A stretch of 64,000 nt of DNA from the sequence record NC_054927.1, one strand, 5' to 3'. Below, piece after piece: positions 37,030 through 37,977 of this stretch (within the stretch, counting starts at the first letter, position 1; each line of letters starts with the position of its first letter). A model generated the notes under the pieces. That model saw nothing but the letters and a program-made list of their open reading frames with translations. It did not search any database and was not told the DNA's origin. Made by a program: the position numbers and the translations under genes. The stretch comes from Escherichia phage vB_EcoM_Ozark.

Positions 37030-37105
37030 TGGTCGAGGCAGTAGGGATCGAACCTACGACCCAGGACTTAGAAGGTCCTTGCTCTTCCTTCTGAGCTATG
37101 CCCCG
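37030..37105 (-). tRNA. tRNA-Arg (anticodon UCU)
   Basis: Hand-folded cloverleaf: acceptor CGGGGCA/TGCCTCG, D-stem GCTC, anticodon loop CTTCTAA, T-loop TTCGATC, CCA encoded. Confidence 0.8.
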
Positions 37106-37109
37106 TAAT

Positions 37110-37185
37110 TGGGGTGACCGATGGGAGTCGAACCCATGACTACGAGAATCACAATCTCGAGTTCTACCAACTGAACTACGGCCAC
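37110..37185 (-). tRNA. tRNA-His (anticodon GUG)
   Basis: Hand-folded: acceptor 7 bp, anticodon stem CGAGA/TCTCG with loop TTGTGAT, T-loop TTCGACT, discriminator C, CCA encoded. Confidence 0.7.
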
Positions 37186-37299
37186 ATTAATACCTACTCC
37201 AATAATCAAGATGTCTTCACACGAAATTAAGAGAAGAGTGATCAGTTCAACCCCTATAATCGCGTCAAGTAGATATTAATGTGACAGTTGTCACAAATT

Positions 37300-37374
37300 T
37301 GGCGGACGTGATAGGATTCGAACCTATAACCAATCGCTTAACAGGCGATCGCTCTGCCATTGAGCTACACATCC
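37300..37374 (-). tRNA. tRNA-Asn (anticodon GUU)
   Basis: Hand-folded: anticodon stem ATCGC/GCGAT, loop CTGTTAA, T-loop TTCGAAT, CCA encoded. Confidence 0.75.
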
Positions 37375-37378
37375 AAAT

Positions 37379-37465
37379 TGGTGGGGAGTGGTGGAGTCGA
37401 ACCACCCGAGTCGCAATGACAATGGATTTACAGTCCACACCGCTACCTCTACGGGATAACTCCCC
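37379..37465 (-). tRNA. tRNA-Tyr (anticodon GUA), long variable arm
   Basis: Hand-folded: exact 7-bp acceptor GGGGAGT/ACTCCCC, anticodon loop CTGTAAA, ~15-nt variable arm, T-loop TTCGACT, CCA encoded. Confidence 0.7.
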
Positions 37466-37478
37466 TTAATTCTTAATT

Positions 37479-37553
37479 TGGTGGCCCTGGGTGGAATTGA
37501 ACCACCATCTGGCGATTATGAGTCGCTTGCTTGAACCTTCCAGCTACAGGGCC
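37479..37553 (-). tRNA. tRNA with anticodon CAU (elongator Met or Ile with modified C34)
   Basis: Hand-folded: exact acceptor GGCCCTG/CAGGGCC, anticodon loop CTCATAA, T-loop TTCAATT, CCA encoded. Confidence 0.7.
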
Positions 37554-37554
37554 T

Positions 37555-37630
37555 TGGTGCTGATTGACGGAATCGAACCGCCGACCTTCTCATTACAAGT
37601 GAGTTGCTCTACCTACTGAGCTAAATCAGC
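37555..37630 (-). tRNA. tRNA-Thr (anticodon UGU)
   Basis: Hand-folded: exact acceptor GCTGATT/AATCAGC, anticodon loop CTTGTAA, T-loop TTCGATT, CCA encoded. Confidence 0.75.
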
Positions 37631-37635
37631 AAAAC

Positions 37636-37725
37636 TGGCGGAGGCGATAGGATTTGAACCTATGAGTCGCCGGAGCGACTGCCGGTTTTCAAGACCGGTG
37701 CATTAAACCACTCTGCCACGCCTCC
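37636..37725 (-). tRNA. tRNA-Ser (anticodon UGA), long variable arm
   Basis: Hand-folded: exact acceptor GGAGGCG/CGCCTCC, anticodon stem CCGGT/ACCGG with loop CTTGAAA, variable-arm hairpin GTCGC/GCGAC, CCA encoded. Confidence 0.8.
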
Positions 37726-37727
37726 AG

Positions 37728-37801
37728 TCTCCATACAAGGATTTGAACCTTGGACCTCCTGATCCCAAATCAGGCGCTCTACCAAACTGAGCTACACGGA
37801 G
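37728..37801 (-). tRNA. tRNA-Pro (anticodon UGG)
   Basis: Hand-folded: anticodon stem CCTGA/TCAGG, loop TTTGGGA, T-loop TTCAAAT; CCA not encoded. Confidence 0.75.
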
Positions 37802-37811
37802 TAAATTAAAT

Positions 37812-37885
37812 TGGAGCGGATAATGAGAATCGAACTCACATCATCAGATTGGAAGTCTGAGGTAATGCCATTATACGATATCCGC
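37812..37885 (-). tRNA. tRNA-Gly (anticodon UCC)
   Basis: Hand-folded: exact acceptor GCGGATA/TATCCGC, anticodon loop CTTCCAA, T-loop TTCGATT, CCA encoded. Confidence 0.8.
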
Positions 37886-37890
37886 AAATT

Positions 37891-37977
37891 TGGTGCGAGA
37901 AGTGGGACTCGAACCCACAAGGAAATCATTCCGCAGCATTTTAAGTGCTGTGCCTTTACCAATTTGACCATTCTCGC
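37891..37977 (-). tRNA. tRNA-Leu (anticodon UAA), long variable arm
   Basis: Hand-folded: exact acceptor GCGAGAA/TTCTCGC, anticodon stem CAGCA/TGCTG with loop CTTAAAA, T-loop TTCGAGT, CCA encoded. Confidence 0.8.

Follow-up and report, generated by a model that had tools for sequence, protein, structure and literature searches.

A ten-tRNA cluster in Escherichia phage vB_EcoM_Ozark: a probable segB-less operon of the T4 family with an HNH endonuclease gene at the tRNA-Gln site

The window analysed here is a stretch of 64,000 nucleotides from Escherichia phage vB_EcoM_Ozark (NC_054927.1). ARAGORN, applied to the whole 64 kb window, found ten tRNA genes at 37030-37977, all on the minus strand (Table 1), and Rfam at its gathering threshold returned the same ten matches over all 64 kb and no other family. 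Nine of the ten scored 59-74 bits, and tRNA-Tyr scored 30.3 bits against a cut-off of 29. Number, order, coordinates and anticodons of the genes agreed exactly with a preliminary description made by hand folding. That description also held that most of the genes encode CCA, and nine of the ten do, the exception being tRNA-Pro, whose 3' end reads ...GGAGA-CU. The spacers of 1-5 nt that it gave are found in only part of the cluster: in transcription order the nine spacers measure 5, 10, 1, 5, 1, 13, 4, 114 and 4 nt, and the longest, which lies between tRNA-Asn and tRNA-His, had been overlooked.

Table 1. Features of the tRNA region, listed in transcription order (coordinates are those of the window)
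Feature	Coordinates	Strand	Remarks
tRNA-Gln remnant, first 7 nt (TGGGAAT)	38599..38605	-	just upstream of the HNH start codon
Free-standing HNH endonuclease gene, 202 aa	37984..38592	-	PHROG 14736; similarity to T5 HegA
tRNA-Leu(UAA)	37891..37977	-	CCA encoded; identical to T4; ARAGORN, Rfam
tRNA-Gly(UCC)	37812..37885	-	CCA encoded; one difference from T4; ARAGORN, Rfam
tRNA-Pro(UGG)	37727..37801	-	CCA not encoded, as in T4; identical to T4
tRNA-Ser(UGA)	37636..37725	-	body identical to T4; CCA encoded here, not in T4
tRNA-Thr(UGU)	37555..37630	-	CCA encoded
CAU tRNA	37479..37553	-	best read as tRNA-Ile2 (lysidine, reads AUA)
tRNA-Tyr(GUA)	37379..37465	-	phage-type long variable arm
tRNA-Asn(GUU)	37300..37374	-	carries the mapped preferred SegB cleavage site (PMC2330249)
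Structured leader RNA, 95 nt, unannotated	37186..37280	-	directly 5' of tRNA-His
tRNA-His(GUG)	37110..37185	-	C73; U, not G, at -1
tRNA-Arg(UCU)	37030..37105	-	T2/RB type, not the T4 sequence; G3 allele giving G3.U70
rnaD (species 2 stable RNA) homolog	36909..37028	-	86% identity to T4 rnaD
rnaC (species 1 stable RNA), tRNA-like 3' part	36764..36902	-	139/139 identical to T4 rnaC
Intrinsic terminator ending the operon	36683..36713 (also given as 36690-36713)	-	10-bp stem with 7 GC pairs, then a T run

The cluster lies between a trna.2 homolog (38703-38990) and the rnaD/rnaC-e.8 side, which is the position of the T-even tRNA operon. Other traits of that operon are present as well, namely genes on one strand, spacers of 1-13 nt except for the one of 114 nt, a terminator and a tRNA-Pro without CCA, and the part that holds the core Leu, Gly, Pro, Ser and Thr genes (37534-37978) is 97.8% identical to T4. 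No segB ORF was found in the cluster. Very probably, then, the locus is a Tequatrovirus (T4-like) tRNA operon on the minus strand, in its common segB-less version. The ten-tRNA arrangement is already known as an ordinary variant of the T4-family operon: slur14 and ACG-C40 have the HNH gene and the same ten tRNAs in their annotation, and the arrangement could be aligned at 96-98% identity with dozens of other records.

The common strand, the spacing and the presence of one terminator suggest that the cluster is co-transcribed. It would form a single minus-strand unit that runs from the HNH gene through the ten tRNAs, rnaD and rnaC to the intrinsic terminator, and, by analogy with T4, host RNase P together with 3'-trimming and CCA-adding enzymes would cut the precursor into mature RNAs, with CCA addition needed by tRNA-Pro only. 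A search for promoters within the cluster gave none that was convincing. The 114-nt spacer was considered as a promoter for a His-Arg subcluster and rejected, since no sigma-70 match on its minus strand was acceptable and its TTGACG motif is not conserved in Jiaodavirus. A perfect CRP core, TGTGA-N6-TCACA, occurs at 37280-37295 (one match against 0.07 expected), a result reached by 7 of 100 shuffles; as the core is not conserved outside Tequatrovirus, it is probably due to chance.

Comparison with NC_000866 bore out the preliminary description on the gene content of T4, which has eight tRNAs (Gln, Leu, Gly, Pro, Ser, Thr, Ile and Arg), so that Tyr, Asn and His are extra in the present phage and Gln is absent. 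The T4 cluster (Gln-Leu-Gly-Pro-Ser-Thr-Ile / segB / Arg-rnaD-rnaC) occupies the same locus and strand with the same tight spacing; Leu and Pro are identical between the two phages, Gly, Ser and Thr are near-identical, and Pro lacks CCA in both. In contrast, the window has neither Gln, which is replaced by the HNH gene, nor segB, its CAU and Arg sequences differ from those of T4, its tRNA-Ser has an encoded CCA, and Tyr, Asn, His and a 95-nt leader RNA are additional.

The absence of tRNA-Gln, claimed earlier for the interval between tRNA-Leu and the adjacent HNH gene, extends further: none was found in the 64 kb window by ARAGORN or by Rfam at the gathering threshold, and none at 36400-38800 in a permissive Rfam E-value scan. 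The idea of a hidden or degenerate copy, whether flanking the HNH gene, within the 114-nt spacer or downstream of tRNA-Arg, was likewise rejected with ARAGORN and both Rfam scans, and a T-arm-like sequence near 36770-36790 belongs to the 3' part of rnaC. The preliminary description had missed the cause. In a junction alignment, homology to T4 extends from trna.2 into tRNA-Gln and stops after nt 7 of that gene, and a 620-bp block carrying the HNH gene (37979-38598) takes the place of nt 8-73 of the T4 gene; tRNA-Gln is absent because this block replaced it. The complete genome of slur14 has tRNA tags gt001-gt010 only, and therefore a genome of this type has no Gln gene elsewhere.

The HNH protein matches PHROG 14736, 'HNH endonuclease', with E=5e-124, and T5 HegA at 35% identity (BLASTP, E=4e-22); its Pfam HNH match is below the cut-off (17.3 vs 21.4 bits), and the catalytic motif ...DHIDGNNKNH...CPNCH is present. 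The gene is annotated as an HNH endonuclease in slur14 and ACG-C40 and is 100% identical to the copy in HY03. At the Gln site the HNH gene and Gln are alternative alleles, found in 62 and 433 phage records, respectively. Such a gene, found in some close relatives and missing from others at a single site with a clean replacement junction, follows the pattern of free-standing homing endonucleases. The HNH enzyme may be capable of homing.

The closest relatives share the whole arrangement. The HNH gene and an identical ten-tRNA order are found in slur14/slur03, teqhad, ACG-C40 and HY03 at 97-99% identity, with slur03, slur14 and teqhad at 97-98% identity to this phage; slur14 and ACG-C40 differ in carrying an extra 367 bp (a 351-nt ORF) between tRNA-Arg and rnaD, which the window lacks. 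A segB-less tRNA region with CAU, Tyr, Asn and Arg was described for T2L, RB1 and RB3, and the tRNA-Asn gene was identified as the preferred target of SegB (Brok-Volchanskaya et al., 2008; PMC2330249). The regions of T2L, RB1, RB3 and RB14 carry the same CAU, Tyr, Asn and Arg alleles as the window (against T2, Asn and CAU are each 72/72 identical and Arg 72/73), but they keep Gln, in the order Gln-...-Ile-Tyr-Asn-Arg in RB14, and have neither the HNH gene nor tRNA-His with its leader; T2 differs further in having no Thr and extra ORFs. In RB14 and T2, Tyr and Asn are thus present but His is missing, and in T6 Tyr is the only one of the three. AR1 was considered as an 11-tRNA genome and rejected, since it has Gln and His and lacks Pro, with a seg-like gene there. 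Shigella phage Sf22 should have all eleven tRNAs by span arithmetic, as its Gln-Arg interval is 1,020 bp vs 948 + 74 bp here. Exact-pattern scans of IMG/VR for further homologs gave 4-5 loci only, and the GenBank phage collection proved a far richer source.

In composition the operon is a mosaic. Leu-Gly-Pro-Ser-Thr is the T4 core, and CAU(Ile2)-Tyr-Asn-Arg is the T2/RB allele, part of which T4 and T6 have lost to segB, a homing endonuclease gene. A further module, the 95-nt leader with tRNA-His, is common to this phage and its Karamvirus, Jiaodavirus, Gelderlandvirus and Winklervirus relatives, and nt 8-73 of Gln have been replaced by the free-standing HNH gene.

The CAU tRNA had been left as either Met or Ile, and several features favour Ile. 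It is 76% identical to E. coli ileX vs 58% to metT/metU, its anticodon stem-loop GCGACTCATAATCGC is that of ileX, and the whole gene is identical to an RB14 gene annotated as tRNA-Ile. E. coli TilS requires C4-G69 and C5-G68 (PMC1635315), and both pairs are present in the acceptor stem GGCCCTG/CAGGGCC. The gene is therefore best read from its sequence as a tRNA-Ile2 that would carry lysidine and read AUA, and the identities together with the acceptor-stem pairs rule out an elongator or initiator tRNA-Met.

The tRNA-Tyr is 86/87 identical to that of T6 and 85/87 to that of the Vequintavirus phiWec189, and its variable arm TGTCATTGCGACTCGGG, where Septu cuts, is the same in T6 and T5; it thus belongs to the same sequence class as the anti-defence tRNA-Tyr of these two phages. 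Overexpression or amplification of the T6 tRNA-Tyr rescues the phage from Septu, and T4, which is without tRNA-Tyr, cannot escape; Septu cleaves the T6 tRNA-Tyr too, and protection is dosage-dependent (Chihara et al., 2026; PMC13096335). The T5 tRNA-Tyr counters retron-Eco7 (Azam et al., 2024; PMC11555353). With the role shown in the literature for a near-identical gene, the tRNA-Tyr of the present phage would, by analogy, replenish the tRNA-Tyr pool destroyed by the PtuAB nucleases of Septu and retron-Eco7. Dosage is raised in T5 by a strong dedicated promoter and in T6 by the adjoining segB, which amplifies Tyr under selection. Neither was found here: there is no strong promoter match directly upstream of tRNA-Tyr, and, with no segB to amplify the gene, protection against Septu may be weak. 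In T2, Tyr is embedded in a long operon, as here, and T2 is Septu-resistant (PMC13096335). Of the links to host range or anti-defence put forward in the preliminary description, the one to anti-defence has experimental support for tRNA-Tyr; no evidence of such a role was found for Asn or His, nor of any effect on host range.

The tRNA-His has the canonical C73 and GUG anticodon (3' end ...GGTCAC-C-CCA), and its anticodon loop, TTGTGAT, is that of E. coli hisR. Position -1 departs from the canonical bacterial trait of an encoded G-1, which hisR has, and is T in the window as well as in slur14, ACG-C40, PG7, Phi_KR1, Proteus, Erwinia, Aeh1 and T5. The HisRS of the hosts of such phages needs G-1. 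Directly upstream lies the 95-nt leader RNA, closed by a 14-bp helix that runs up to and includes position -1 of tRNA-His. The helix is paired in 70/70 cells across five haplotypes, with compensatory changes at four positions, and the fold has a z of -3.46. The leader is present in 354 phage records, annotated in none of them and conserved across five T4-like genera, and the permissive Rfam E-value scan of 36400-38800 gave no match for it. Five genera retain the leader together with tRNA-His, and the leader has undergone compensatory changes, which argues for selection.

The tRNA-rich region of T5 offers a parallel. There, HNH endonuclease genes are interspersed with tRNA genes, and tRNA-His, again with T at -1, directly follows RNAIII, a stable structured RNA of 106 nt with a closing helix of 12 bp. 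However, T5 belongs to another phage family, and RNAIII and the 95-nt leader are alike in architecture only; homology between them was rejected, as neither blastn similarity nor a covariance-model match was found.

The neighbouring tRNA-Arg combines features of two identity sets. Bacterial tRNA-Arg is determined by A20, C35, U36 and A/G73, and bacterial tRNA-Ala by G3.U70, A73, G2-C71, G4-C69 and G20 (PMC9976931). All four Arg determinants are present, with A20 in the D-loop AGAAGGAA, the anticodon UCU and A73. The acceptor stem CGGGGCA/TGCCTCG-A also holds the acceptor-stem set of Ala (G2-C71, G3.U70, G4-C69 and A73), a signature found in about half of the relatives. The first pair of tRNA-Ala is G1-C72. 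Here the gene has C1-G72 and not G1-C72, and A20 and not G20; it is not an alanine tRNA and carries the acceptor-stem part of the Ala identity set only. The leader and the G-1-less tRNA-His might together be a conserved module of at least five T4-like genera outside ordinary decoding, in which the leader would act as a stable regulatory or decoy RNA, or tRNA-His would be matured or charged non-canonically, and the adjacent G3.U70 tRNA-Arg(UCU) would be partly charged with Ala. We regard this as highly improbable, and the literature searched gave no description of such a leader-His module or of an Ala-charged tRNA-Arg.

How the operon came by its content can be explained in several ways. All ten tRNAs might only match the AT-rich codon usage of the phage to the tRNA pool of the host. 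Compared with an E. coli baseline of 42 CDS from a 50-kb sample rather than the whole genome, the A-ending codons of the seven core tRNAs are enriched in the phage (AGA 9.1x, AUA 5.1x, GGA 3.7x, ACA 3.7x, UCA 3.5x, UUA 2.9x and CCA 1.5x), and still more in the late baseplate gene block. In the reading of the operon that we favour, the seven U34/lysidine tRNAs supply codons that are common in the AT-rich phage, above all in its late genes, and rare in E. coli. Tyr (1.78x) and Asn (1.66x) rank within the top three amino acids for excess use over E. coli, and the Asn tRNA, less clearly the Tyr tRNA, would serve amino acids used about 1.7-fold more by the phage than by the host. Codon usage, suggested earlier as a point of comparison, hence agrees with the seven T4-type tRNAs and with Asn, less well with Tyr and not with His. 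Usage of His is 0.67x that of the host and its codons are rarer in late genes, so that the role of tRNA-His is left unexplained by codon demand. Lys is used 1.70x, yet the phage has no tRNA-Lys; Gln(UUG) reads CAA, which is 1.6x enriched, yet it was lost here and the HNH gene stands in its place in 62 phage records; and the published experiments give Tyr a defence-related role (PMC13096335). We consider supply as the whole explanation rather unlikely. For Asn and His we infer a selective value.

Somewhat more room, though still with doubt, may be given to selfish DNA. Here the tRNA content would come mostly from gene conversion by homing endonucleases (segB, seg-like, HNH) that cut in tRNA genes, and not from selection on each tRNA, with Gln lost and His gained as passengers. 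Four different genes stand in place of single tRNA genes at this locus, namely segB in T4 and T6, a seg-like gene for Pro in AR1, an ORF for Thr in T2 and the HNH gene in this window. The recognition target of SegB is the T-loop consensus of tRNA genes, and in crosses about 1250 bp of the T2 tRNA genes are replaced by its action; the tRNA region is reported to be non-essential (PMC2330249); GGTTCRANTCC occurs in 8/10 tRNA genes here. Against this, the core tRNAs are 98-100% conserved over hundreds of genomes and match codon usage well, and the joint retention of His and its leader points to selection. Colicin E5 targets the Tyr, His, Asn and Asp tRNAs, and a decidedly unlikely reading is that Tyr, Asn and His, all with GUN anticodons of the kind that is queuosine-modified in the host, are retained as a set that makes up for host tRNAs lost to tRNA-targeting defences or toxins, among them PtuAB and colicin-E5-like nucleases. 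The role shown for the T6 tRNA-Tyr (PMC13096335), tRNA supplementation as a general evasion strategy (PMC11555353) and the failure of codon demand to explain His speak for it. However, RB14, T2 and T6 show that the three genes do not travel as one block, Asp as the fourth member is absent, and no paper was found in which a T-even tRNA-Asn or tRNA-His is tied to a defence. Loop mutation as a means of escape from anticodon nucleases was also rejected, as in all three tRNAs the anticodon loop of the phage gene is that of E. coli.

Public T4-like genomes already have this exact layout annotated, and accounts of its variable part go back to 2008. In practice the cluster can serve as a marker. The phage is a carrier of the tRNA-Tyr type that a 2026 study showed to counter Septu. 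Its intact SegB target in tRNA-Asn means that the region should be lost in mixed infection with segB-carrying phages, and the Gln site provides a further case of a single tRNA gene overwritten by a homing-endonuclease gene. If confirmed, the leader RNA before tRNA-His, the G-1-less tRNA-His and the tRNA-Arg with an Ala signature would bear on the rules of tRNA maturation and identity, and could outweigh the cluster itself.

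A complete search of the 64-kb window with ARAGORN recovered exactly ten tRNA genes, all on the minus strand, in the transcription order Leu(UAA), Gly(UCC), Pro(UGG), Ser(UGA), Thr(UGU), CAU, Tyr(GUA), Asn(GUU), His(GUG), and Arg(UCU). Rfam at curated thresholds returned the identical set and no others, and a permissive Rfam scan of 36400-38800 added only chance-level matches; tRNA-Gln was found by none of these searches. The preliminary description had given the same ten genes in the same order and reported no Gln gene, and both statements were borne out. The T4 content it gave also agrees with the T4 annotation (trna.2/Gln Leu Gly Pro Ser Thr Ile/segB/Arg rnaD rnaC). 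CCA, which it saw in most genes, is encoded in nine of the ten, the exception being Pro, so that CCA addition in Ozark would be needed by Pro alone. Its spacers of 1-5 nt hold for most intervals (5, 10, 1, 5, 1, 13, 4, 114, and 4 nt from Leu to Arg), but not for those of 10, 13, and 114 nt, and the Asn-His gap had been missed. The tRNA-Ser gene ends in an encoded CCA where the otherwise identical T4 gene has TAA; the RB14 Ser gene is 90 nt, equal in length to that of Ozark. The tRNA-Tyr gene lies narrowly above the Rfam tRNA threshold (30.3 vs. 29 bits), and its tRNAscan score of 39.1 is the lowest among the tRNAs in the ACG-C40 record; these low scores notwithstanding, function has been shown by experiment for the near-identical genes of T6 and T5.

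Coordinates of the tRNA cluster, its neighboring elements, and corresponding features in related phages
Feature	Sequence	Position	Strand	Basis
Stable RNA rnaC (species 1)	Window	36764-36902	-	
Stable RNA rnaD (species 2)	Window	36909-37028	-	
tRNA-Arg/rnaD junction	Window	37026-37030		
tRNA gene cluster	Window	37030-37977	-	ARAGORN
tRNA-Arg(UCU)	Window	37030-37105	-	
tRNA-His, 5' end	Window	37185-37186	-	
Leader RNA	Window	37186-37280	-	
CRP-core palindrome	Window	37280-37295		
tRNA-Tyr	Window	37379-37465	-	
CAU and Tyr tRNA genes	Window	37379-37553	-	
tRNA-Ser, 3' end	Window	37636-37638	-	
Block in place of Gln nt 8-73	Window	37979-38598		
HNH endonuclease ORF (predicted)	Window	37984-38592		PHROG, T5 HegA likeness
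tRNA-Gln remnant	Window	38605-38599		Pairwise alignment
Late baseplate gene block	Window	43.7-62.5 kb		
351-nt ORF between tRNA-Arg and rnaD	slur14/ACG-C40 (L001)	2124-2474		
351-nt ORF between tRNA-Arg and rnaD	T2 (L030)	1697-2047		
ORF at tRNA-Thr position	T2 (L030)	938-1339		
seg-like gene at tRNA-Pro position	AR1 (L035)	1945-2595		
Counterparts of CAU and Tyr genes	phiWec189 (L009)	1501-1587, 2073-2147		

The cluster is an annotated, already known variant of the textbook operon. Tequatrovirus (T4-like) phages, among them slur03, slur14, and teqhad, share 97-98% identity with the region, ACG-C40 matches it with 98.9% identity over 88% of the query, and partial matches to it occur in 1,111 phage records. 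In the RefSeq records of slur14 and ACG-C40 the same ten tRNAs are annotated in unchanged order, with an "HNH endonuclease" ahead of them; since the complete slur14 genome carries only the tRNA tags gt001-gt010, no Gln gene lies elsewhere in genomes of this kind. Downstream, rnaC is identical to T4 at 139/139 positions and rnaD is 86% identical, so that conservation shifts sharply within about 10 nt; an intrinsic terminator follows both. A 351-nt ORF (367-bp insert) separates tRNA-Arg from rnaD in slur14, ACG-C40, and T2, whereas Ozark, T4, and RB14 lack it.

Homology to T4 spans trna.2 up to nt 7 of tRNA-Gln (TGGGAAT), is then lost, and restarts one base ahead of tRNA-Leu, with a 620-bp block standing where T4 has the rest of the Gln gene. 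The 202-aa ORF in this block is predicted to be an HNH endonuclease from its match to PHROG 14736 (E = 5e-124) and its 35% identity with T5 HegA, whose gene is likewise embedded among tRNA genes; the match to Pfam HNH is below the cut-off. Among GenBank phages, records with the HNH gene number 62 and those with a T4-type Gln gene 433, so the Gln-less form is a minority allele, caused by insertion of this free-standing endonuclease gene. The homing endonuclease gene segB occupies the Tyr-Asn place in T4 and the Asn place in T6, and the loss of a tRNA gene to a single inserted gene seems to recur at this locus. Such replacement fits the published behavior of SegB, which recognizes a T-loop sequence conserved among tRNA genes, has the T2L tRNA-Asn gene as its preferred target, and in crosses overwrites T2 tRNA genes over about 1.25 kb (PMC2330249), and it fits the statistical association of segB homologs with tRNA genes (PMC13096335). 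At the same locus, a seg-like GIY-YIG gene lies at the expected tRNA-Pro position of AR1, and a 402-nt ORF at the expected tRNA-Thr position of T2.

The CAU, Tyr, Asn, and Arg genes correspond by sequence to the allele without segB that T2L, RB1, RB3, and RB14 carry. Compared with T2, Asn (72/72) and CAU (72/72) are identical, Tyr matches at 82/84 positions, and Arg differs by one base; the complete Tyr-Asn-spacer-His-Arg block is shared by 185 phage records. The CAU gene, left as Met or Ile by hand folding, is best assigned to tRNA-Ile2. It shares 76% identity with E. coli ileX vs. 58% with metT, has the ileX anticodon stem-loop, and contains the C4-G69 and C5-G68 pairs required by E. coli TilS (PMC1635315), which together rule out a Met tRNA. 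Both CAU and Tyr also match their counterparts in the unrelated Vequintavirus phiWec189 at 98-99% identity, which points to tRNA genes having been exchanged recently between phage families.

To assess codon supply, 88 window ORFs were set against 42 annotated genes of E. coli K-12. Relative to E. coli, the window ORFs favor codons served by the seven T4-type tRNAs (AGA 9.1x, AUA 5.1x, GGA 3.7x, ACA 3.7x, UCA 3.5x, UUA 2.9x, CCA 1.5x), and still more so in the late baseplate gene block, and these tRNAs match the classical codon-supply picture. The comparison with late-gene codon usage suggested by the preliminary description thus favors these seven and also Asn, which at 1.66x is, with Tyr (1.78x), within the top three over-used amino acids and rises in late genes; Tyr stays flat there. 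His is used at 0.67x and less still in late genes, and codon demand therefore does not explain tRNA-His. Because Gln is under-used (0.75x) and CAA merely 1.6x enriched, losing tRNA-Gln looks cheap.

Anti-defense, to which such accessory tRNAs had been linked, is supported for Tyr only, by published experiments on near-identical genes. Septu EcB88 (PtuAB) cuts the variable arm of tRNA-Tyr, plating is restored by overexpression of T6 tRNA-Tyr or its segB-driven amplification, and T4, without a tRNA-Tyr gene, cannot escape, whereas T2 is resistant (PMC13096335); retron-Eco7 is likewise defeated by T5 tRNA-Tyr (PMC11555353). The Ozark gene is identical to that of T6 at 86/87 positions, and its variable arm is identical in T6 and T5. 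That Tyr, Asn, and His are all kept against defenses is nevertheless unlikely, as the anticodon loops of the three phage tRNAs equal the host loops, the genes are not co-inherited, and our literature search gave no report of such a role for Asn or His from T-even phages.

A 95-nt fold, here called the leader RNA, takes up most of the Asn-His spacer (whole spacer: MFE -31.5 kcal/mol, z = -3.46), and the final nucleotide of its 14-bp closing helix is position -1 of tRNA-His. Over five haplotypes from Tequatrovirus, Karamvirus, Jiaodavirus, Gelderlandvirus, and Winklervirus, 70/70 cells of this helix are paired, vs. 31-34/70 when the register is slid, with compensatory double changes at four positions; many G.U pairs become A.C mismatches if read from the other strand. 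A covariance model built on nine sequences detected the internally divergent Proteus (68 bits) and Erwinia (41.8 bits) copies, and gave no match in T4, RB14, T6, or T5. The spacer with His is 80-91% identical to Karamvirus and Jiaodavirus phages of Enterobacter and Klebsiella. By blastn, 354 phage records contain the leader RNA, always unannotated, and no Rfam family matches it. T5 has an analogous stable RNA, RNAIII, directly 5' of tRNA-His, with no detectable homology. Between tRNA-Asn and the leader RNA lies a perfect CRP-core palindrome (TGTGA-N6-TCACA), the sole match in the window vs. 0.07 expected; it is not conserved beyond Tequatrovirus, is equaled in 7/100 shuffles, and is probably due to chance.

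The tRNA-His itself carries U at -1 instead of G, and retains C73 and GUG. T at -1 with C73 was found in all phage homologs checked (PG7, Phi_KR1, Proteus, Erwinia, Aeh1) and in T5, whereas in E. coli the hisR gene supplies G-1, which HisRS uses as a main identity element (PMC9976931). In tRNA-Arg, the acceptor stem CGGGGCA/TGCCTCG with A73 yields G3.U70, G2-C71, and G4-C69, which with A73 make up the acceptor-stem portion of the alanine identity set in bacteria, alongside the Arg determinants A20, C35, and U36 (PMC9976931). Such a tRNA may be partly charged with Ala. G3 is present in 210 records and A3 (T2, RB3, RB14) in 217, and the polymorphism is therefore common and tolerated; our literature search gave no paper discussing it. 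The leader RNA, the tRNA-His without G-1, and the tRNA-Arg with G3.U70 are the features of this cluster that deserve specialist attention.
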